DNA of 64,000 nucleotides from Candidatus Nomurabacteria bacterium (GCA_020631855.1 JACKGU010000002.1:89188-153187); one strand, 5' to 3'; numbered from the stretch's first letter, positions 6,271 to 39,308 are shown. Numbers and translations are program-made. Notes: a model not told the origin generated them from the sequence alone.

Positions 6271-6438
6271 TTATCTTTTTTTTGTTGCTACTTTTGCTTT
6301 TGCTGTTGTTTTTTTAACAACCTTCTTTACTGCTTTTTTAACAGTCTTTTTTGCAGCTACTTTCTTTACTGCTTTTTTAACAGTCTTTTTTGCAACTGGT
6401 TTTTTTGCTACTTTCTTTACAGTCTTTTTTACTGGCAC
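6271..6438 (-). CDS. Lysine/alanine-rich histone H1-like / HU-tail-like small basic protein (55 aa, absent from the ORF track)
   Basis: Minus-strand frame: GGAGGTGA-ttatt-GTG start. Translation VPVKKTVKKVAKKPVAKKTVKKAVKKVAAKKTVKKAVKKVVKKTTAKAKVATKKR, stop TAA. It is built from 39-nt tandem repeats. The + ORF 6217..6459 is its shadow. Confidence 0.6.
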   Translation of the reverse strand: MPVKKTVKKVAKKPVAKKTVKKAVKKVAAKKTVKKAVKKVVKKTTAKAKVATKKR

Positions 6439-6787: not shown

Positions 6788-7672
6788 TTATTTGGTGCTC
6801 TCTACCGGTGTCCAAAGTTTTAGTAAAGGTTCATTTTTTATTTTTACTTTATAAAAAATTAATCCCCAAACATGTAGTCTCGCCAAGAGTAATAAAGAAG
6901 ACCAAAAAAATTCTTTTGGGTTTGTTGCAAATAAAATTACACTTAAACCTCCTTGTCCTATTTCTCCTAAAAAAGATCTATTGTTTTTTTCTGGTTTATA
7001 GATTTCTGCTTGAGTATGTCCGGCGGTTGATCTTGTTTTTTGCTTTAGCCAGTCATAGTAATTCAGTGGGTATTTTACCTTAACTAAGGCTTCCTCCTCG
7101 TAGGCTATTCGATAGCCTGCCTCGTGCACTTTGTACGATATTACTGCATCATCGGCTAAAGAGTTCTCAGGAATTGAGTCGACTATACCCGCTCTTATGG
7201 CATATAAATATCCTGAGCATTGGATATACCGGTTTTGTTTCGACAGAAGTTTACGATTATTATTTAAGATGTTGGTGAGAGCATGCGACCAGTAACCTAA
7301 AATTGTATTTTTTGAGTTTAGGCTTATCGGATGTCCGCACACAGCTCCAATATTTTTATCAAGATATAGATTTTTAACCAGCATGGGTATGGCGTTACTT
7401 TCCAAAAAAACGTCACCATCTGTTAAAACAATTATCTCTCCCTTTGCATGCCTTAAACCAATGTTTAAAGCTGCAGGCTTGCCTTTTCTCTCGTCCTTAA
7501 AAAGTATTATATTTTTATATTGATTTTTTAATTCCTCTACAGATTTAACTGTTTCCGGATCAGGGCATATGACAAGAACCTCATCTTCATGGGAGATTTG
7601 TTTTTGTATCGAATCTATAGCTACTTTTATTGTTTTAGGTTCTCTATATGCTGTCACTATTATACTTAGCAT
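6788..7672 (-). CDS. Family 2 glycosyltransferase
   Basis: 294 aa with GT2 motifs (IIVTAYRE..., DGD in VLTDGDVFLE). Confidence 0.85.
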   Translation of the reverse strand: MLSIIVTAYREPKTIKVAIDSIQKQISHEDEVLVICPDPETVKSVEELKNQYKNIILFKDERKGKPAALNIGLRHAKGEIIVLTDGDVFLESNAIPMLVKNLYLDKNIGAVCGHPISLNSKNTILGYWSHALTNILNNNRKLLSKQNRYIQCSGYLYAIRAGIVDSIPENSLADDAVISYKVHEAGYRIAYEEEALVKVKYPLNYYDWLKQKTRSTAGHTQAEIYKPEKNNRSFLGEIGQGGLSVILFATNPKEFFWSSLLLLARLHVWGLIFYKVKIKNEPLLKLWTPVESTK

Positions 7673-9141: not shown

Positions 9142-9870
9142 TTACTCAACAGCTATTGTTTCGCTTAGAGTTGCTATTACAACAAGTCTTTTTAATGTTG
9201 TTCCGGCCGGCCAGCATGTCATTAGTGTTAAGGTGTTTTTATCCTCGTAGCCTTCTAACGTCTTTAGATATGCTAGTTCTTTTGGGCCAACTATTTTAAC
9301 CTCAGAAACCGAATACTTATTTATAAAGTTTTTTTGTGATTCTGAGAACTTTAGATATATTTCATCAGTCGGTGCAAGCTTGTAGAGCAAATAGAATATT
9401 GCATTGTATTTATTTACATTAATAAGCCCGTCTGTTGAATGCGCAAAAACGAAGGTGTTAGTACCGAGGGACAGCCCCGAGGTTGGATAATCACTGCCTT
9501 TGGCGTGAGCTACTCCGTATTTTAAGGCCGTTCCATATTCCTCAGAATTAAACGGATCAATATTTTTCAATATTTTTGCTTTTGCGCCAATTTTGGGTAT
9601 GTAGATTGAATCTTCGTTGTATGGCTGGAAATTACTTAAAAAATCGTTAATGTTTTTATTTGTTGAGTCTTTAGAGATAGTTTGTATGTTTGCACCGTAA
9701 CCTTTTTTGTTAACAAGGTAGTTAAGCTCCTCGCCAAGAACCGGCAGGAACAATAACGCCAGTCCTATAAGTGAGAGTGAAAAGAGTGCGGCTCCTGTGT
9801 GCAGGAGCCGCCTCGACCCATTACCATTCGATTTATTTTTGACTATTTTTAAGTCGTTTCTTTGCCCCAA
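9142..9870 (-). CDS. Sortase family transpeptidase
   Basis: 242 aa. N-terminal TM and catalytic TLxTC motif (LTLMTCWPAG). Lies immediately downstream of the LPATG protein gene. Confidence 0.8.
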   Translation of the reverse strand: MGQRNDLKIVKNKSNGNGSRRLLHTGAALFSLSLIGLALLFLPVLGEELNYLVNKKGYGANIQTISKDSTNKNINDFLSNFQPYNEDSIYIPKIGAKAKILKNIDPFNSEEYGTALKYGVAHAKGSDYPTSGLSLGTNTFVFAHSTDGLINVNKYNAIFYLLYKLAPTDEIYLKFSESQKNFINKYSVSEVKIVGPKELAYLKTLEGYEDKNTLTLMTCWPAGTTLKRLVVIATLSETIAVE

Positions 9871-12800
9871 GGTATAAGCCTAAAACTGCCAAAATTATTA
9901 CTGGAATATAGATTACCGGAGAAGTAAGAGCATTTACCAGTTTAGCTAAGAGTGTTGAGGAATTTCTTTCTCGATCTGTTCTTATGTTGCCGTTTCCCTC
10001 GTCCTCGTTAGTTCCTAGAACAGCACCGTCTCCTTGATCTTGGTCAGCTCCCGTCTGATTCTGATCTTGTTCACCTGCTGTTCCTGTGAGGCTCTGTAAG
10101 CCCCCTGCAGCCCCGATAAATTGTCCCTCGGTAGTAGTAACCTCGCTATCGCTGTCACTATTAACTGTTTTTTCAATTATGGTCTCTTCGGTTATTTCCT
10201 CCACCCTGACATTAGAAGGATTTCCGGCTTCGTCAAAAGCCCTTACTGCGTAGTAAGGTTTTTTACCGCATTTATCGGAAGGAAGGTTATCGGTAAACTC
10301 ATATGTAGCGTCGTTACCTATTGAGATAGTTTTAATCTTAGAGCTGTCATTAACTGTAAACTCTTTGTTAAAAGATCTATACACCTCTACATAGTTTGTG
10401 TCTCCTTCGCTGCTAGTTTTAAATTTTACCTCATATTCACAGGAATTTTTTTTATCCTTTTTGATGTATCTTGGTTTTCCGGGGCCTTTGCTGTCGTATT
10501 TCACACTGACGCTTTCCGAAGTTATTGAAGTTTCGTCAGAAAACACGGCTTTGACGTTAAAGTAGTATGTTCCGTCTTCCGTAAGTACTGAGTTATTAAC
10601 TAAGCAAGAGTCGGTGTTGCCGCCGTCGGCGAGAGACACCTCTTGATATTTTATGTAGTCTGCCGATGTCGGTTTTTTAACATAGCACTCTACGTTTGTG
10701 TTGGGCCTGCTTTCTGTATCTAACAGAACAAATGTAATCGAAAACTCACTGTTTGCAGGGCTTATTGGATCCTCTACTCTTAGTGCGGCGGCTGCGTCTA
10801 CTTTGTTGAAGTTCATTGCGCCTGCGGCCAGCAGGACCAACAAGGATATGAGCGTGACTCTTGCAGTTCTTGTTAATGACATTTTTTTATTCTTTCTAAG
10901 CAGGCCAAATACTATTAATATTATTCCTGAGGCTAAGGACACTAGTAAGGTTGCTAGTATGGCGGTTATTGTTCCTGTTGCAGGTAGCCCCAAAACTTCC
11001 CCACGTTCTGTAGATGCTCCTAAAACCTCTTCAATTATTTCTTTTTTGTTAACCTTTACTTCAGTTTTCGCTTCGTCCGGCTGAGGCTTTTCTTTTACTC
11101 CCACTTCGGTGCCCGAAAAGTTCTCGTCTACGTAGCCCTCGGTTTCCGCTTGTGCCAAGATCTCGTTTTCGTTACTGTCGGAACCTTGAGTCCATGTGAG
11201 GTCTTTATACAGCCCGGGGTCCACTGAAATTGCTGTTTTAGCCTTTAGCGTAAGAGTTACAACTTCTCCGTCCTCCATGTCTCCTAGTTCCCATGTTCCC
11301 GGAGAGGCATAAGTTGGTTCGGTAGTAATATTTCCGGCTTTAAGATCTCCCCTTAAACTCGAGTCTGCAGTATATGATCCTGCGATGTATGTAAATCCCT
11401 CGGGAAGAAGATCTACGACCCTAACATTGTATAGGTAGCTTAGCTTCGCGGTAACTTTTATGGTATACGTGACGACATTCTCAACTTCATTGTCAAGGTA
11501 ATCTCCTGTCCAGTTATTTGTTTTCATTAGATACAACTCAGGAGTTATCGGGGCATTAAAGAAGTCAAAATTTGTCTTTTCAGCTGCTTTGTCGCTGTCA
11601 ATCGCGACCTCTCCGTCGCTAAGGCGAGCTTGGTAGAAACCTTTTTCAGGAGCAATTATGTCGTAGCCCGGAGTTTCATCCTCCCAAATTTTATAGTGCC
11701 CGTCTCTTAAATCATCAAAGAAATATTCGCCCGACTTGTTTGTAGTAGTATCTATGGTTGTATCTTTCAGGCACTCGTAATTGGGACTAATAAGCCCTTT
11801 TTCTGATAGATTCGTTGTTGTACTTAGTACGCTAACTGTCTGTGAAGGCAATTCGCACAAATGTATTGGCCAGTTGGGTAGTGGGTAGTCTGTTTCATCG
11901 TATATTCCGTTTCTGTTTAGATCAGCATACTTGTGTCCTGTTAAAGAGCCGGTTCGCATATTTCCGAAGATACATTCCGCTTCCTCCCCAGGTTTCAGAT
12001 CAATTGTGCATATATCCGGCGAGGTAGTTTGTTTCCATCCTTTTTGCTGTGTTTCTTTAATAGTATATTTTCCCGGATCGAGTTTAATTAGATAGTTGCC
12101 GTTCTCATTTGTAGTTGTTGTATATATACTTTCTTTAGATCCGTCATCTGTGTAAAGCTCAATTCCCCACCCCTCAAGTTTAGGTTCGTTTTCCTCTTTT
12201 GTCCCGTTCCCGTTAAGATCATTAAATTTATAGCCTGTTATTGCGGCAGTGTCGGTTTTCAGGTCCTCGCACACACCCTCTACGGCTAAAAGTGCGTTTA
12301 CATCAAAACCGTCGGCAGAATTGATGTGTGGTGCAAAGTTTGTAGTGTCTATAAGTTTCACATATTTAAACCAGTTCATTTTTGGAAGCTCGTTGCTAAT
12401 ATCAAGATCGTTCGCACCACCTGAAACGTGGTTGGTAACTTCTCCTGCAAAAAACCAGGACGTTCCATTTTGTGAAACGTAAACATCTGCGGTTTCCTCC
12501 GGGTATCCGAACCTTGACTCATATGTAGTTTCGTAAATAGTTAAGTCGGTCCCGCTTACATTTAGTACCGGATCGTCAAATGAAATTACCAACTCACCCT
12601 CTTTTCCAAGGCTTACAAAATCAGAATCAAGCTCAAATAAAGAATTGGCGGGATCTGACCTTTCAGGCAGAACATTGCCGCCTCCTTTAAGAGTGCCTTG
12701 GTCGAAGCTGACGACTGATTGTGCCCACCTTTTGCCTTCTACGCATTGATTTTCTTCGGGCATGTCTACTATTGAATTTGGACATGAGGCCAAGTCATTT

Positions 12801-14311
12801 ACTTGCAAACCCCTCGTATCAGCTACCTCTTTTGCCTCTTCTCCGTTCAAAACATTTTCGTAGGTAAAAGAATAAGCTCTGGATCTAACCGGAGAATCTT
12901 GTGTTGATGATACGTAAAATTTCCCGTCTTTAATTGCTAGGCCGGTTACATTTTTTACGCCAATATTTCCAATGTATTCAGCTACCTTAGTGGTTGAGCG
13001 TAGGACATAGAAATTGCCATCGTAGTCGACAGCAAAAAGCTTATTTTCTGAGTCAAACGCCATATCTCCGCCGAAAGTTTTGAATCCTGTATAAGTTCCT
13101 TTGTATTCCGAAGAGCCGTTGGTTATATCAATAGTATAAAGTTTAAAGTCTTTATTCATTGTATATAGATTTGCATCTGCATCGAAGGCTAGTTTGGGAT
13201 AGCCTTTGTATTTTTCAAGGCCGCTTGTTTCAAGCTCGGTCTGTGTCCCTGTTGCAATATCATATTTAATTAAGACCGGGTTTATTTTTTGACTATTATA
13301 GATATAGTAAACATCTCCAGTTTTTGGATGAAGTGCGCCCCCTGCCGTTGGTTCAATTTGGTCGACTACCTTTTTATATGTACTTTCTCCTAAGTCTAAA
13401 ACAGTCATTTCGCTCTCTAGTCCTACACCAAAAATGTCTTGGCAAATTTTAAATTCGGGCTGTACTGATTCGCCCGGGCAGAGGCCGTTTTCATCTACTG
13501 GCATGTCTTTTTCGTGGCCGGCTCGGGTTGTTCCGTTCTCGCTAAGGTGCCCGGCATTGCCGTTTCCATATAAAGCGTTGCAGGATATTTCTATTTTTAC
13601 ATATTTGTTAGTTTCTGAACTTGTAGCGTGGCAAAGAGTGTATTTCCCACCATAATCATCTTTGCACTCTGTTTCTGTTGGGAATAAGGGGTCTGCTTCT
13701 TCATTACTATTTTTCGAATTTATCGCAAGCGCAGCTTCTGCAGTATTGGCACCGCTGCCGCTCTCATCCTCCTTTGTAGGAGCTTGAATGCTCTCGCCCT
13801 CAGTAAGAGTTGCCTCGTTTTGTTTCGAGAATTCTGTGTCTTTTTCTCTTTCTTCGTTTATTCCTGTCTCGACTTTTTTACCAGCTGTGTTGTTTGAGCC
13901 GTTGTCGTAAGATATCGCCTCATCGCCACTATTTTGTGAGGTTTCGTCGGTTGTTTCGGTCCTGTCTTTATCTTCTTGTTCTAAAATCTTATCCCCGTCT
14001 GTAGCTGAGTCGTTCGTTTCATTCTCTGCTGAATTGTCGGTCGTGGGTTCTTCTGAATCTTTCCTACTACCCTCGTCCTTATCCGAATCTTGTTGCTCGG
14101 GAGAGTCCGCTTTTTCTTTACCTTCTTTGTTTTCTTCATTCGACTTTGCTTCTTTTTTTTCATCACCGTCTTCAGCCATAATGTTCGGAGTGTTGTTGTT
14201 CGTATTGTCGGTTGCAGCATAGACAAGAGGGCTCAAAATATTTAATAAAAGAGATATAAGAGTCAGGGTAGTTAATAGTTTTTTATAGAAACGTATATTT
14301 TTTGTTTTCAT
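9833..14311 (-). CDS. Giant LPXTG-type surface adhesin (signal peptide, acidic linker, beta-propeller-like region, two Cna-B/SdrD-B-type domains, LPATG sorting signal) fused in frame to a second secreted FN3-like membrane protein
   Basis: 1492 aa. Residues ~1115-1143 are LPATG + hydrophobic TM + RKNKK. They are followed in frame by MSLTRTAR + h-region + AAA (a new signal peptide) and a 349-aa module ending in its own TM + KKRLKNSQK. The junction lies on an A7 tract (plus-strand T7 at 10882-10888). Confidence 0.7.
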   Translation of the reverse strand: MKTKNIRFYKKLLTTLTLISLLLNILSPLVYAATDNTNNNTPNIMAEDGDEKKEAKSNEENKEGKEKADSPEQQDSDKDEGSRKDSEEPTTDNSAENETNDSATDGDKILEQEDKDRTETTDETSQNSGDEAISYDNGSNNTAGKKVETGINEEREKDTEFSKQNEATLTEGESIQAPTKEDESGSGANTAEAALAINSKNSNEEADPLFPTETECKDDYGGKYTLCHATSSETNKYVKIEISCNALYGNGNAGHLSENGTTRAGHEKDMPVDENGLCPGESVQPEFKICQDIFGVGLESEMTVLDLGESTYKKVVDQIEPTAGGALHPKTGDVYYIYNSQKINPVLIKYDIATGTQTELETSGLEKYKGYPKLAFDADANLYTMNKDFKLYTIDITNGSSEYKGTYTGFKTFGGDMAFDSENKLFAVDYDGNFYVLRSTTKVAEYIGNIGVKNVTGLAIKDGKFYVSSTQDSPVRSRAYSFTYENVLNGEEAKEVADTRGLQVNDLASCPNSIVDMPEENQCVEGKRWAQSVVSFDQGTLKGGGNVLPERSDPANSLFELDSDFVSLGKEGELVISFDDPVLNVSGTDLTIYETTYESRFGYPEETADVYVSQNGTSWFFAGEVTNHVSGGANDLDISNELPKMNWFKYVKLIDTTNFAPHINSADGFDVNALLAVEGVCEDLKTDTAAITGYKFNDLNGNGTKEENEPKLEGWGIELYTDDGSKESIYTTTTNENGNYLIKLDPGKYTIKETQQKGWKQTTSPDICTIDLKPGEEAECIFGNMRTGSLTGHKYADLNRNGIYDETDYPLPNWPIHLCELPSQTVSVLSTTTNLSEKGLISPNYECLKDTTIDTTTNKSGEYFFDDLRDGHYKIWEDETPGYDIIAPEKGFYQARLSDGEVAIDSDKAAEKTNFDFFNAPITPELYLMKTNNWTGDYLDNEVENVVTYTIKVTAKLSYLYNVRVVDLLPEGFTYIAGSYTADSSLRGDLKAGNITTEPTYASPGTWELGDMEDGEVVTLTLKAKTAISVDPGLYKDLTWTQGSDSNENEILAQAETEGYVDENFSGTEVGVKEKPQPDEAKTEVKVNKKEIIEEVLGASTERGEVLGLPATGTITAILATLLVSLASGIILIVFGLLRKNKKMSLTRTARVTLISLLVLLAAGAMNFNKVDAAAALRVEDPISPANSEFSITFVLLDTESRPNTNVECYVKKPTSADYIKYQEVSLADGGNTDSCLVNNSVLTEDGTYYFNVKAVFSDETSITSESVSVKYDSKGPGKPRYIKKDKKNSCEYEVKFKTSSEGDTNYVEVYRSFNKEFTVNDSSKIKTISIGNDATYEFTDNLPSDKCGKKPYYAVRAFDEAGNPSNVRVEEITEETIIEKTVNSDSDSEVTTTEGQFIGAAGGLQSLTGTAGEQDQNQTGADQDQGDGAVLGTNEDEGNGNIRTDRERNSSTLLAKLVNALTSPVIYIPVIILAVLGLYLGAKKRLKNSQK

Positions 14312-14504: not shown

Positions 14505-16646
14505 ATGTATCTGCCAACAGAAAAATCCCATAAAAAAGCTAATATGTTTTTCAAAAGTTTTACGACTTTTATATCGGTGTTTTCAGCACTTGCCTTTGCT
14601 CTTGTTGTGAAATCGGCCCATGCTGGTGTCTTAGCAGTTCCTGACGAGGTACTTTCTTGGGGGATAAACGGCCAGAACAATGGTGAATTTACTCACGCCA
14701 ATTCTATTACTGTAGATACTTCTGGTAATGTTTATGTTGTTGATGAGAATAACGATTTAGGGCTAGATAGGGTTCAAAAATTTGATTCAGACGGTAATTT
14801 TGTTGATTCTTGGGGAAACACTTCGGGCAGTGGTGACGGTCAGTTTTCATATCCTGTGGGAATAGCCTATTACGCCGGAAATGTATTTGTGGCCGATTTC
14901 AGCAATGCTCGTATACAGTCTTTGACCACTAATGGCGTATTTGTTACTAAATGGGGTGACTATTGTCCATATTCAGGAGGTTGGGTTGAAGAGGATGGAT
15001 GTTTCAATGGAATAAAAGATATCGCCGCAAATGCAAATGATGGAATAATATATGCTCTGGACGGCTTTAATAGGGTTCAGGCTTTTGACGAAGATGGTAA
15101 CTTCTTATTTTCGTGGGGTAGTACAGGTTCCGGAGACGGTCAGTTTCTTGATACTGAATCTATAACCTCATCCACTGTGGGCGGCAATGAAAGAGTTTAC
15201 GTTTCTGATAATTCCAGAAAAGATATTCAGGTATTTGACTTTGAGGGGAACTTTATAACCAAATGGGGTTCTTATGGAACAGGGGACGGTCAGTTTGAAT
15301 CCTTTAATAAAATAAGCGCATTCCAAAATTACATTTTTGTTTCTGATAACACACGAGTTCAAATCTTTGATTTAGATGGTACATTTCTATATTCTATGCC
15401 AGTTGCCGTAACAGGCGTGGCCGCTGCCGGGAACTATCTTTATACAGCTAACCAGCCTTCCTTTCCAATTGACGCAGTACGAGTATTTAATGTATACGCT
15501 GACATGATTATAGAGGAAACAGACGGGTCTACTGATGTTGTTGAATATGGAGCTACCGACGAATACCACGTTTCCATGACTGCAGAACCTGTGGGGGGAG
15601 TAGATATTAGGATAGATTCCGATTTGGGACAGATTTATTTTCCTGATAATCCTGATAACAATCTTCCTGTTAGCACAAGTGTTCAAATGACATTCGGAGC
15701 TGATTATGCTGATGTGAGAACTATAAAAGTAGCAGCTATTGGAGACGCTATAGCAGAAGGCGACCACGAAGACGCTGCAATATTCTCTTTCGTTCCAAGC
15801 AACGATTTTACTGACATTATTACCATGACTGTAAATATCACAGACGGGGAGAACCCTGAAGGTACGGGCTCAGGAGACGAGGACTCCGTCGAGCCTACAT
15901 ACGGAATGGAGATACACTCTATTGACGGTCAAGAAATAGCTTACGTAAAAAGACTAAGAGGGGGATCTGACGATGCCAGACATGAAGTTATTATTAACAC
16001 AGTAAAGCCAGTTATTAAGTTTAAGATGGTTGATGTCGATGGTGTTGAAATAGAAAAATATCAACTAAGGCTAACTAAAACCGACGAGTTTCACAATAAA
16101 ATTAACCCCTCGTTTAATTGGTCTGAGGATATAAAACCCAGAAGCGAAGGTACTTATAAAGAAGATGGTTTCAGGGTTAAGTACAAAAACGGATACATTT
16201 ACGCATACCCGACTTCTAAGAAAACTCAACTTAAAGAGGGGGTTTATTACGTTAATGTAAGGGCCTATGATTCCAACGGTGAGAAAGTTAGTGGAGAAGA
16301 GATCAAGGTAAGGGTCGAGTTAGGTTCTGAAGATGCTGTTTTCACAGTACAGAATATAGGCAGTATTGCATACGAAACAAAGTATACTGAATATCACTAC
16401 ACAGCCCCCTATGTCACATTTATAGGCACAGCTTCTAGCGATACAGAGGTTCAGTTGTTTGTAGATGGTGCCGCTGTCGATACCTTTGTATCTAAAGACG
16501 GGAGTTACTCTTTGAGTACAGTCTTAAGCTCAGGGGTTCACTCTGTAGAGATTCGTTCCGGGGGCCAGGTAATCGCCTTCTCCTTAAATATAGATGAGAC
16601 GGGACAATCTTTTCCGGAAACGCTAAGAAGATTGATTGGTTTATAA
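14505..16646 (+). CDS. Secreted NHL-repeat beta-propeller protein with C-terminal Ig-like domains
   Basis: 713 aa. The likely true start is the Met of the signal peptide MFFKSFTTFISVFSALAFALVVKSAHA (14544). Repeated GDGQF...P.GIA...G.VFVAD..N.RIQ NHL repeats. Upstream TTGACA-17-TATGAT promoter at 14466-14494. Confidence 0.7.
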   Translation: MYLPTEKSHKKANMFFKSFTTFISVFSALAFALVVKSAHAGVLAVPDEVLSWGINGQNNGEFTHANSITVDTSGNVYVVDENNDLGLDRVQKFDSDGNFVDSWGNTSGSGDGQFSYPVGIAYYAGNVFVADFSNARIQSLTTNGVFVTKWGDYCPYSGGWVEEDGCFNGIKDIAANANDGIIYALDGFNRVQAFDEDGNFLFSWGSTGSGDGQFLDTESITSSTVGGNERVYVSDNSRKDIQVFDFEGNFITKWGSYGTGDGQFESFNKISAFQNYIFVSDNTRVQIFDLDGTFLYSMPVAVTGVAAAGNYLYTANQPSFPIDAVRVFNVYADMIIEETDGSTDVVEYGATDEYHVSMTAEPVGGVDIRIDSDLGQIYFPDNPDNNLPVSTSVQMTFGADYADVRTIKVAAIGDAIAEGDHEDAAIFSFVPSNDFTDIITMTVNITDGENPEGTGSGDEDSVEPTYGMEIHSIDGQEIAYVKRLRGGSDDARHEVIINTVKPVIKFKMVDVDGVEIEKYQLRLTKTDEFHNKINPSFNWSEDIKPRSEGTYKEDGFRVKYKNGYIYAYPTSKKTQLKEGVYYVNVRAYDSNGEKVSGEEIKVRVELGSEDAVFTVQNIGSIAYETKYTEYHYTAPYVTFIGTASSDTEVQLFVDGAAVDTFVSKDGSYSLSTVLSSGVHSVEIRSGGQVIAFSLNIDETGQSFPETLRRLIGL

Positions 16647-25212: not shown

Positions 25213-25884
25213 TTAGTGTTTCTGCTTTTCAAGTAGATATTTGGCTCCGGCGGCAACTGCTTCGTCCAAAGAACTCCAGATTTTCGACCCAAATAACTCT
25301 CTCAAAGGTTTCTCGTTAGGTTTTCCTCCTTGCTCGGGATTTGAGAAAAATGTTAAGGACTCTTTCAATAATTCATATCTTTCTTTTCCGAGAGTTTCTA
25401 AAAGTTCAGGATAGTAATAGTAAAACATAAAATGGTTTAGTTCGTGTTTTGCAGTACCAAGTTGTGGCATCAGAAATTTATAATTTGCAAAAAAATACCT
25501 ATTCTCATAACTGTATGGAAATATGTTATTGGTCGTCAGATATGCTGTAATAGTTTCAAATGGAAATGGTTTTTTGTACAGGAACTCCAGAGAATATATT
25601 ATGGAGTCTCCTACATTTTCCCACGAATCCTGTAGCCTTTTTATGCCTTTTTCTATATTATCCGGATCATTTTCATAGATATTTTTTAAATGATTGTACA
25701 CTTGTTCATAAACAGCTTCCGCGTTTTCTGCATTTATTAAAATTTCTTGAAGCTTAAGATCGAGTTTTTCAAGCAATTTGCTTTTCGGGCCATCTCTTCC
25801 ATGTTTAAACGCCTTGAAGGTATATACAAAATCAACATAAGTTCGAGCATCCTTTTCTAGTGAGTACTTTACTAATAGTTTCAT
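25213..25884 (-). CDS. Hypothetical protein
   Basis: 223-aa ORF. -10 TATAAT 12 nt upstream. A C15 tract abuts its -35 region. Confidence 0.4.
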   Translation of the reverse strand: MKLLVKYSLEKDARTYVDFVYTFKAFKHGRDGPKSKLLEKLDLKLQEILINAENAEAVYEQVYNHLKNIYENDPDNIEKGIKRLQDSWENVGDSIIYSLEFLYKKPFPFETITAYLTTNNIFPYSYENRYFFANYKFLMPQLGTAKHELNHFMFYYYYPELLETLGKERYELLKESLTFFSNPEQGGKPNEKPLRELFGSKIWSSLDEAVAAGAKYLLEKQKH

Positions 25885-25924: not shown

Positions 25925-25939
25925 CCCCCCCCCCCCCCC
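25925..25939. repeat. C15 homopolymer tract (G15 on the coding strand of the gene at 25884)
   Basis: 15 consecutive C. Lies 22 nt upstream of the -10 hexamer of the minus-strand gene. Confidence 0.85.
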
Positions 25940-37646: not shown

Positions 37647-39308
37647 ATGAAAAAATACGAAAATAAAACAGCTGTTATCCTCTGCCGAGTAAGTTCAAAA
37701 GAACAAGAAAAAGAGGGTTATTCTCTACCTTCCCAAGAAAAATTGTTAAAAAGTTATAGCGATAAAGAGAAGCTAAATGTTGTTAAGACTTATACGTTCT
37801 CTGAATCTGCTAGAGCCTCTTCTGAAAGGGTGTATTTTAAGCAAATGATGGAGTATGTAAAAAAGCAAAACATACACGTTATTGTTTGTGAAAAAGTAGA
37901 CCGCGCAACTAGAAATTTAAAAGATACTCAGGTTTTATACGATTGGCTAGAGGGCAACCCAGATAGACAAATACACTCTGTAAAAGATTCAATTGTTCTA
38001 CATAAAAACTCTAAATCTCAGGAAAAGCTAAATTGGGATATTAGAGTAATTTTTGCAAAGAACTATGTAGATAACCTATCTGAGGAAGTTAAAAAAGGTC
38101 AAATTGAAAAGCTAGAGAAAGGTTGGTTACCTACAAGTCCTCCTTTAGGTTATAAGACAATTGGTGAGGAAGGTAAAAGAATTCATATTCCAGATGAAGC
38201 CACAAAGCACTTTGCTAAAAGTCTTTTCGAACTATATGGAAGTGGTACCTATACATTATCTCAATTAGTGGATTTATTGTTTGAAGAGGGCCTTAGAACA
38301 CCGACTGGTAAAAAATACTCAAAGAGTATGCTTTATAGATGTTTACAGAATCCTTTTTATATTGGTTACAACAGATGGAATGGAAATGATTTTCCAGGTA
38401 ATCAAGAAACATTTATTAGCCCATCTTTATATGAAACTGTTCAATCAAGACTAAAAAGAAATGGTTCTCAAAAATTCATTAAACATAACCACTTATTGCG
38501 TAGCATGGCTGTCTGTAAAGAATGTGGAGGAACAATTACATGGGAACTAAAGAAAGGAACTGTCTACGGCCATTGTGGTCGTAGGCAGGGCTGTTCCCAA
38601 ACAAAATGTGGTAAAGAACATGAATTTGAAGAAAAGATTATAAATGAGATGGAAAATCTAGTAATCAAGAATAAACGTGTCTTAGATTGGGTAAGCAAAG
38701 CTCTTAAAGAGAATCACAAAGATGAAATTAATGCCTACAACTACTCGGTTGAAGAATTAACTAAACAAGAAGAAAAAATAACAGAAAGACTTAGCCAAAT
38801 TTACGATGATAAGTTAGATGGCAAGATAGATGAGTCTTTTTATAACTTAAAAATGGAACAATACACCACTGAAAGAACTGAAATTCAAAAACAAAGGACA
38901 AGATTAGCAGATAGAAACACAAAGTATTATGAGATAGGTTCCCTAATATATGATATCGCTCAAAATGCGCCAAAGATTTATAAAGAGTGTAAAGATGTTG
39001 ATAAAAAGAGAAAAATTTTAGGAATAATCTTCAGAACTTTTCAACAAGAAAATGGCGAACTTGTAGAATTGCAGTTATCAAAGCCTTTTGAAACGCTCAA
39101 AAAAGCAGTAAGTATTACTAACAGTTCGAACTTGGTTAAAAATGAGGAGTTGCAAAAAGAGATTTTAGAACTCGGGGATTTTGTTGCTGTGGAAGCAAAT
39201 AAAGAGTCTTTTTCTGATGATTGTTCTCCATGGCTGGGGGACAGGGATTCGAACCCCAATTTTCGGGACCAAAACCCGACGTGCTACCCTTACACCATCC
39301 CCCAATGA
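37647..39308 (+). CDS. Large serine recombinase (integrase)
   Basis: 553 aa. N-terminal resolvase catalytic domain (AVILCRVSSKEQ), recombinase domain, zinc ribbon CKECGG...CGRRQGCSQTKCG, coiled coil. The last ~25 codons are antisense to tRNA-Gln. Confidence 0.85.
   Translation: MKKYENKTAVILCRVSSKEQEKEGYSLPSQEKLLKSYSDKEKLNVVKTYTFSESARASSERVYFKQMMEYVKKQNIHVIVCEKVDRATRNLKDTQVLYDWLEGNPDRQIHSVKDSIVLHKNSKSQEKLNWDIRVIFAKNYVDNLSEEVKKGQIEKLEKGWLPTSPPLGYKTIGEEGKRIHIPDEATKHFAKSLFELYGSGTYTLSQLVDLLFEEGLRTPTGKKYSKSMLYRCLQNPFYIGYNRWNGNDFPGNQETFISPSLYETVQSRLKRNGSQKFIKHNHLLRSMAVCKECGGTITWELKKGTVYGHCGRRQGCSQTKCGKEHEFEEKIINEMENLVIKNKRVLDWVSKALKENHKDEINAYNYSVEELTKQEEKITERLSQIYDDKLDGKIDESFYNLKMEQYTTERTEIQKQRTRLADRNTKYYEIGSLIYDIAQNAPKIYKECKDVDKKRKILGIIFRTFQQENGELVELQLSKPFETLKKAVSITNSSNLVKNEELQKEILELGDFVAVEANKESFSDDCSPWLGDRDSNPNFRDQNPTCYPYTIPQ
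39231..39304 (-). tRNA. tRNA-Gln (anticodon UUG)
   Basis: Sense: TGGGGGA-TG-GTG-TAAGGGTAG-CAC-G-TCGGG-TTTTGGT-CCCGA-AAAT-TGGGG-TTCGAAT-CCCTG-TCCCCCA-G-CCA. U1-A72 is typical of Gln. CCA is encoded. Confidence 0.85.

Follow-up and report, generated by a model that had tools for sequence, protein, structure and literature searches.

Why should a complete cell wall sorting signal lie in the middle of an open reading frame (ORF)? The question is posed by a locus in a 64-kb stretch of DNA from a Candidatus Nomurabacteria bacterium (GCA_020631855.1, JACKGU010000002.1:89188-153187), which was analysed as a whole and is hereafter termed the window. On its minus strand, an ORF of 1492 amino acids (aa; positions 9833-14311, stop codon at 9833-9835) encodes a large putative adhesin, an LPATG sorting signal and, across a run of seven A residues (A7), what resembles a second protein with a signal peptide of its own. 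An initial annotation of the sequence had offered three explanations, namely two genes joined by a homopolymer slip that might be phase-variable, a sequencing indel, or a genuine polyprotein. Our analysis indicates that the ORF probably encodes a genuine, conserved polyprotein belonging to a surface cassette of three parts (adhesin, FN3 module and sortase) found among the candidate phyla radiation (CPR)/Patescibacteria, and that this precursor would be cut by the sortase and probably also by signal peptidase. The comparative data thus strongly support the third explanation, and the topology proposed with it holds, although the stable membrane remnant with two transmembrane (TM) helices that it envisaged is unlikely.

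The junction and its fused and split relatives

Translation of the ORF bears out the unusual architecture that had been claimed for it. The LPATG motif (aa 1109-1113, 10973-10987; this and all following features of the cassette lie on the minus strand) is the sole LPxTG sorting signal within the window. It is followed by the 25-aa hydrophobic helix of the sorting signal (TM1; aa 1114-1138, 10898-10972, TITAILATLLVSLASGIILIVFGLL), which hydropathy predicts to run from outside to inside, and by the charged tail RKNKK (aa 1139-1143), after which MSLTRTAR, a hydrophobic stretch and VDAAAA continue in frame. The basic loop between the two hydrophobic segments (aa 1139-1151, 10859-10897, RKNKKMSLTRTAR) is predicted to be cytoplasmic, contains six Lys or Arg residues and no Asp or Glu, and has a dual role: it is the charged tail for the sorting signal and the n-region for the second signal peptide. 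Of this internal signal peptide, the second hydrophobic segment and c-region (aa 1152-1173, 10793-10858, VTLISLLVLLAAGAM followed by NFNKVDA) align with the N-terminal signal peptides of stand-alone homologues, and the predicted signal peptidase I cut falls between VDA and AAAL, which would leave AAALRVEDPISPANSEF as the N-terminus of the module. A further stretch of about 320 residues follows VDAAAA and closes with a third helix and a basic tail. The components of a sortase substrate are all present, i.e. an N-terminal signal peptide, the LPXTG motif, the helix and charged segment, and an encoded sortase for which the motif region GEVLGLPATGTIT is a candidate substrate; the signal is simply not C-terminal, as 349 residues follow it in frame. 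Kyte-Doolittle analysis of the whole protein finds exactly four hydrophobic segments (aa 12-30, approximately 1106-1138, 1150-1168 and 1461-1479), and the positive charges beside them match the previously suggested out-TM-in-TM-out-TM-in topology. The module's own C-terminal TM helix and basic tail are likewise confirmed, both by hydropathy and by a structural model.

When examining the distribution of this arrangement, it is evident that most members of a family numbering in the hundreds have the fused architecture. A first word-indexed protein search gave a different impression, as it returned almost only stand-alone homologues of 323-326 aa, located between a large LPATG protein and a sortase, with a signal peptide that aligns with the MSLTRTAR segment of the window protein from residue 1. 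The view that two genes are the family norm was overturned by a scan of genome contigs and an exhaustive profile search. The scan, performed with one genome per GTDB species, yielded 51 loci; judging by record titles, roughly half belong to metagenome-assembled genomes (MAGs) of CPR/Patescibacteria and the rest mostly to third-party annotation (TPA) assemblies labelled, as deposited, Gammaproteobacteria, Bdellovibrionales, Pseudomonadales or Zixiibacteriota. The initial annotation had proposed that orthologous loci be compared for a stop at the junction, and the outcome was twofold: most are fused, the module lying in frame behind an upstream ORF that ranges from hundreds to over 2300 codons in 36 loci (37 counting L023), and there are also split loci in which the two genes overlap by 8 nt. 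In L023 (around locus positions 7000-7050), a masked run of N within the module gene mimics a split; TM1, the loop, the second hydrophobic segment and the module start are all encoded in the ORF upstream of it. Every fused junction among the species loci consists of LPxTG, a helix of 19-26 aa, a loop of 3-17 aa, a second hydrophobic segment, a small-x-small site and the conserved module start L-S-V-R-I-E-x-P-K-S-P-T-N. The loop carries two to eight Lys or Arg residues and almost no Asp or Glu; across the family, its median length is 7 aa and it is always basic.

The profile search, which covered 1.84 billion representatives, detected 1277 family members at E ≤ 1e-3 (representatives clustered at 50% identity) and 537 at E ≤ 1e-30. 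We analysed 172 family proteins, comprising 150 among the matches listed plus the earlier matches, of which 75 stand alone (≤350 aa), the other 97 being longer. An internal sorting signal is found in 95 of the 97 longer proteins, and in every case the module occupies the very C-terminus; 52 fused proteins have LPATG as the motif, 22 have LPSTG and 12 have LPGTG. The six nearest module relatives of the window protein are all fused, five of them without a Met at the junction, which indicates that the fused state was inherited in this lineage and did not arise from a recent slip. Signals for independent translation of the module have largely disappeared from fused members: a junction Met is present in 45 of 95 fused proteins, while among the 37 fused loci, seven have no in-frame ATG, GTG or TTG at the junction and just three have a Shine-Dalgarno-like 4-mer upstream of an in-frame junction start. 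Given the loss of these internal start signals, the module of fused members would be made only within the polyprotein.

The split loci exhibit an equally regular organization. In 12 of 14 scorable cases the module ATG overlaps the adhesin stop codon by exactly 8 nt (ATGnnTAA), and 11 of 14 have a Shine-Dalgarno site, GGAGG or GGAG, 5-10 nt upstream of the module start. This site is spelled out by CGG AGG, the Arg-Arg codons in the charged tail of the sorting signal, as seen in L008, L009, L013, L016, L017, L025-L027, L031 and L037 (junctions near locus positions 6900-7005). Split members fit the canonical definition of a C-terminal sorting signal exactly, and the fusion is an extreme form of the 1:1 translational coupling seen among them. 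Neighbor-joining (NJ) and Fitch parsimony across 171 members require no fewer than 22 changes from one state to the other (fused or split), compared to about 56 when the states are shuffled, a count that comes from a quick tree of 199 columns in which some stand-alone proteins may be products of gene calling. Indels in the A-runs of Lys codons are a plausible evolutionary route for such switches. Both states can also be found together, as the MAG CAZQBH01 holds both a split cassette (L022) and a fused one (L039).

The partners of the cassette

Immediately downstream of the polyprotein is its cognate sortase gene (9142-9870), which encodes 242 aa from a TTG start, with an N-terminal TM anchor, the catalytic motif TLMTC and a Pfam Sortase match at 1.3e-16. 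The start of this gene overlaps the 3' end of the polyprotein by 38 nt. The same linkage is observed throughout the family: a sortase gene lies directly downstream of the module in 52 of 54 loci, the remaining two running off their contigs, and it starts within a few dozen nucleotides of the module stop, often overlapping it. The best NCBIfam match of the window enzyme is to class C (NF033745), at 62.5 bits against a cutoff of 160.

In the fused forms, both the LPxTG motif and the signal peptidase site show signs, at the level of sequence conservation, of still being under selection. A small-x-small site precedes the mature module in 70 of 76 fused and 67 of 68 split members; for reference, random 15-aa windows of the adhesins contain a strict A-x-A in 3.4% of cases, a figure that applies to the strict form and not to the looser small-x-small pattern. 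Fused and split members alike have a median of 23 aa between the last Lys or Arg and the mature domain and, with the combined length of h- and c-regions being equal in both states, the second hydrophobic segment has kept the geometry of a signal peptide.

The adhesin begins with a putative signal peptide (aa 1-32, 14216-14311), consisting of MKTKNIRFYKK, an h-region and a predicted cut after VYA and before Ala, as judged by hydropathy and the small-x-small rule. According to Pfam and NCBIfam, the ectodomain (aa 33-1108, 10988-14215), which includes an acidic low-complexity region, contains prealbumin folds of the SdrD-B/SpaA-like type, located at aa 691-764 and in a second stretch, as well as a DUF11-type repeat (aa 943-984), and neither database detects a peptidase domain (M26/HExxH) in the window protein. 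Its pre-anchor segment ends in VLGAS...EVLG, the form conserved family-wide being VLGAS-T-x-LPxTG.

The module had been described as containing a single FN3/Ig-like domain, but two in tandem are present. An AlphaFold2 model built with 28 sequences shows two confident beta-sandwich domains that match FN3 structures, followed by a disordered linker and a TM helix. Domain 1 (module aa approximately 30-130, 10493-10792) contains the conserved pair C66 and C93. Domain 2 (module aa 137-228, 10199-10474), delimited by the model and by conservation, contains the NSCEY and YYAVRAFD motifs, the pair C148/C205 and, at its start, K142, which is 97% conserved in a Y-x-K context and replaced by Arg in a few members. 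All four Cys residues are conserved at close to 100%, and the presence of one pair in each beta-sandwich is in keeping with an extracytoplasmic location. The acidic, Gly-rich linker (module aa 232-309, 9956-10189) is disordered, with a predicted local distance difference test (pLDDT) score below 50, and is followed by the C-terminal TM helix (aa 1461-1482 of the polyprotein) with the basic tail AKKRLKNSQK (9836-9931), which has no LPxTG before it. Because an LPxTG-like motif precedes this helix in just 4 of 171 members, the module can be regarded as a plain membrane-anchored protein. No Pfam or NCBIfam family matched it.

A short VLG motif occurs in both surface partners of the window, in the adhesin as VLGAS (11012-11026) and EVLG (10988-10999) and in the module linker as AVLGT (10010-10024). 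VLGAS lies exactly 7 aa before LPxTG in 54 of 92 fused proteins, and [VIL]LG, mostly as xVLGE.T, is found in the disordered juxtamembrane linker of 158 of 171 modules, compared to a background of 0.09 per 95 aa. The shared motif may serve for docking, or it may be left over from duplication of a sorting signal. Our best guess for the module is that it acts as a membrane-proximal partner or scaffold of the adhesin-sortase pair.

Proposed processing of the polyprotein and the alternatives

Based upon these features, a course of events can be proposed for the polyprotein. The N-terminal signal peptide would start Sec export of the adhesin of about 1080 aa, until TM1 stops transfer and the loop RKNKKMSLTRTAR is left in the cytoplasm. 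The second hydrophobic segment would then restart export from inside to outside as an internal signal peptide, so that the tandem FN3-like module is translocated and its last helix anchors it in the membrane with the tail inside. The adjacent sortase would cut LPATG between Thr and Gly and transfer the adhesin to an envelope acceptor, presumably a peptidoglycan precursor by analogy with canonical sortases, while signal peptidase I would probably cut after VDA, freeing the module as a type I membrane protein. The leftover would be a 61-aa hairpin of two helices (G1113-A1173). Two details of the initial annotation would need revision under this scheme. The wall-linked product was given as an adhesin of 1143 aa, which is too long, as the sortase product would stop at T1112; and in place of the two-TM membrane protein that was thought to remain, the likely signal peptidase cut would probably leave a type I membrane protein and a discarded two-TM hairpin. 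Fusion would be tolerated because both cleavage sites already exist in the two-gene version, and repeated switching would follow from both forms yielding the same mature products at 1:1 stoichiometry.

Several points weigh against this reading. The constancy of the A7 tract rests on assemblies of essentially one strain (99.9-100% identity) rather than independent lineages, and the tree behind the switch count has the limits mentioned above. The sortase scores below the curated cutoff of every NCBIfam sortase class. Cleavage within LPATG and after VDA is deduced from sequence in every member. Finally, the window junction retains an ATG after a purine-rich AGAAAG, albeit no GGAGG, and some independent initiation of the module is possible.

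Two of the alternatives turn on the A7 tract, which is present as had been reported (plus-strand T7 at 10882-10888). It comprises two Lys codons and the A of an ATG, the minus strand reading AAT AAA AAA ATG with the last base of the tract being the A of the start codon. A spurious extra A might have merged two real genes, an artefact for which homopolymers, as error-prone sequences, would be natural sites. One Logan contig of the same strain (L059, SRR17907852) does have frameshifts elsewhere: an A4-to-A3 deletion near window positions 13489-13492 truncates the adhesin to 295 aa (P0174), and the neighboring PDDEXK gene is frameshifted as well. This second frameshift suggests that the truncation probably reflects a low-quality assembly and not biology, and the contig itself stops short of the junction. 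In contrast, the identical 1492-aa protein is encoded on eight contigs, which include an NCBI MAG (GCA_020631795.1, 630-kb contig), an ENA MEGAHIT assembly and Logan assemblies of separate runs, and NCBI lists it under four protein accessions, with candidate division WWE3 or Ca. Nomurabacteria as their labels. The same fused protein with A7 recurs in at least five assemblies from three assemblers (MEGAHIT, SPAdes and Logan) and from several runs and studies, which excludes an assembler-specific indel, and unrelated genomes are mostly fused without any homopolymer at the junction. The sequencing indel can therefore be rejected, and an artefact of any kind is extremely improbable. It is also very unlikely that slippage from A6 to A7 joined two genes recently, or that the tract toggles as a contingency switch. 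Such a scenario would account for the position of the tract exactly at the junction, and loss of one A would indeed yield ...AAA AAA TGT CAT TAA, i.e. RKNKKCH and a stop with an overlapping ATG. Split relatives with overlapping stop and start codons do exist, and Lys-rich loops derived from A-runs are common in the family, such as KINKK encoded as ...AATAAAAA..., which makes indels of this kind a plausible evolutionary route. However, the clean separation of genes that the initial annotation saw in this allele is within chance, as a 1-nt deletion brings up an off-frame stop within two codons at 19% of codon positions in the ORF. Runs of this kind (A/T ≥7 or G/C ≥6) number 75 in the window, at 37% GC, with three inside the polyprotein ORF. 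With A/T runs of seven or more so frequent and off-frame stops so readily reached, the tract and the alternative stop are each unremarkable alone, and A7 is simply a pair of Lys codons in an AT-rich genome. Furthermore, no A6 or A8 variant was found in the assemblies or in a scan of JGI/ENA metagenome contigs with a junction pattern tolerating A5-A9, which returned one further SPAdes contig, with A7 and 100% identical to the window; an exact lookup of the stand-alone 349-aa module expected from A6 found none on record; and the nearest relatives are all fused, mostly without Met. The hypothetical A6 allele would have a 10-nt overlap and no GGAGG, unlike the canonical 8-nt arrangement of split loci. 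No RNA structure is evident downstream of the tract, where 112 nt fold less stably than shuffled sequence (z = +1.89), and programmed ribosomal frameshifting was also rejected as a candidate, the two parts already being in frame. A recent or phase-variable slip is accordingly unsupported at this locus.

The remaining alternatives accept the ORF as genuine and differ from the processed polyprotein in what becomes of its product. The LPATG motif could go unused, leaving an uncleaved protein of three TM helices and two ectodomains with the adhesin held by TM1. Both cleavages are sequence-based predictions, sortases normally recognize C-terminal signals, and the sortase here is not assignable to a known class, all of which would fit such a protein. 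It is nevertheless an unlikely one, hard to square with an LP.TG motif kept in 95 of 97 long proteins, a helix and basic flank the same as in split forms, a dedicated sortase adjacent to nearly every module, and a free interchange of split and fused forms that implies equivalent products; in addition, streptococcal zinc metalloproteases provide a precedent for a functional LPXTG away from the C-terminus. We also consider it improbable, albeit worth stating, that the sortase joins the adhesin to the FN3 module itself, through a lysine or the new N-terminus, with the hairpin excised and the adhesin displayed on a stalk held by the module's TM helix. The strictly conserved three-gene cassette with its 1:1 coupling or fusion, the similarity of the sortase to pilus-polymerizing class C enzymes above all others, the conservation of K142, the VLG motif shared by the adhesin (beside LPxTG) and the module linker, and the proposed role of a CPR protein with tandem FnIII domains and a C-terminal TM helix, PamR, as a filament anchor would all accord with this. 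On the other hand, a few members have Arg in place of K142, neither a YPKN-type pilin motif nor an E-box was recognized in the module or cassette, the mature N-terminus of the module is not conserved across members, and the class C score is far below its cutoff. Stated more boldly, such a reaction would amount to sortase-driven protein splicing, in which the adhesin is ligated onto the FN3 module in cis (polyprotein) or in trans (split form), signal peptidase removes the hairpin, VLG is the docking element for both partners and the three-TM precursor becomes a branched product with one C-terminal TM helix, a conjecture to which we attach little probability. A polyprotein cut by sortase, and probably by signal peptidase, is the reading that we favor.

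Known systems, genomic surroundings and implications

The closest described precedent for the window junction is the N-terminal arrangement of streptococcal Zmp-type proteases. As summarized in PMC3518915 and PMC7939560, the N-terminal part of the IgA1 protease and ZmpB/C/D comprises a signal peptide, LPXTG, two hydrophobic segments and a second signal peptidase site; the atypical N-terminal LPXTG anchor of ZmpA-ZmpD is credited to Bender & Weiser 2006 in citing accounts (PMC3518915, PMC2225412). These proteases and the window protein share a sorting signal that is not C-terminal, two hydrophobic segments and an internal second signal peptide, the peptidase site in the window being predicted from its motif. 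Their layouts are otherwise distinct. The Zmp LPXTG lies near the N-terminus behind a short leader and the functional part is C-terminal, whereas LPATG of the window protein is at residue 1109 of 1492 behind an adhesin of 1080 aa, and what follows is an FN3 module of small size, which has a TM anchor of its own and no M26 domain. Unlike Zmp, the CPR architecture alternates with a two-gene form and has a dedicated adjacent sortase; the lineages also differ, being CPR on the one hand and Firmicutes on the other.

Compared with canonical LPXTG substrates, the window protein has the same motif, helix, basic tail and N-terminal signal peptide, and an adjacent sortase with a TLxTC motif. The canonical signal is C-terminal, while in the window and most family members it is internal with approximately 350 residues after it, and the sortase falls below class-specific cutoffs. 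Class C pilus clusters resemble the cassette in having a clustered LPXTG substrate, a dedicated sortase, SpaA/SdrD-B-type folds and a sortase whose best match is class C, yet the cassette has one LPXTG substrate, a second protein that rarely carries such a motif (4/171), no recognized pilin motif or E-box, and a score well below the cutoff. As for one ORF specifying two membrane or extracytoplasmic proteins, the cytochrome b-c1 precursor FbcH of Bradyrhizobium is divided at an internal signal peptide by signal peptidase; it has no sortase step and the proteins are unrelated to those described here. We know of no alternation of FbcH with a coupled two-gene form. Our literature search retrieved no account of bacterial polyproteins with internal signal peptides, nor did we find a description of internal LPXTG polyproteins or sorting signals in CPR, or of the cassette. 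An architectural analogue of the module, compared by description alone, is PamR, which belongs to the Pam pilus operon of CPR, combines tandem FnIII domains with a C-terminal TM helix and is presented as a predicted membrane tether (bioRxiv 10.64898/2026.03.03.709456). As outlined in that preprint, the Pam system uses donor-strand exchange and involves no sortase or LPXTG, unlike the cassette.

Several other features of the window were recorded. Divergent from the polyprotein and adjoining it in all assemblies of the strain is a plus-strand gene (14505-16646) for a secreted NHL/beta-propeller protein of 713 aa, which has Ig-like C-terminal domains and lacks a sorting signal. A 39-bp tandem repeat of 3.2 copies (84% matches) occupies 6309-6430, in the region of a small Lys/Ala-rich ORF; the NCBI MAG copy of this stretch (L001) is 51 bp longer than that of the window, and array length thus varies between assemblies of the same strain. 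At 25925-25939 there is an intergenic C15 homopolymer (G15 on the minus strand), very unusual at 37% GC, about 40 nt upstream of the ATG of a minus-strand ORF (25213-25884); either a phase-variable promoter tract or a fault of the assembly could account for it. Lastly, a tRNA-Gln gene (39231-39304, minus strand) overlaps the last 75 nt or so of a mechanically called plus-strand ORF (37647-39308), whose 3' end is probably over-called.

Sortase substrates are both defined and detected by their C-terminal signal, whereas hundreds of CPR proteins carry a fully conserved signal some 350 residues before their C-terminus. Such proteins are missed or mislabelled by annotation pipelines and LPXTG predictors. 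It is now evident that an internal LPXTG combined with a second signal peptide is a widespread natural design that extends beyond the streptococci. The cassette also offers a clean case of gene fusion and fission, in which fused and split genes would become equivalent through the action of sortase and signal peptidase. The module itself represents a large, undescribed and unannotated family, its 1277 representatives travelling with a giant adhesin and a sortase. A survey by Méheust et al. 2019 (PMC6744442) lists sortase as near-ubiquitous in Microgenomates. The family is likely to be central to the display of attachment proteins in Microgenomates-type CPR cells, and it therefore bears on their episymbiotic lifestyle.

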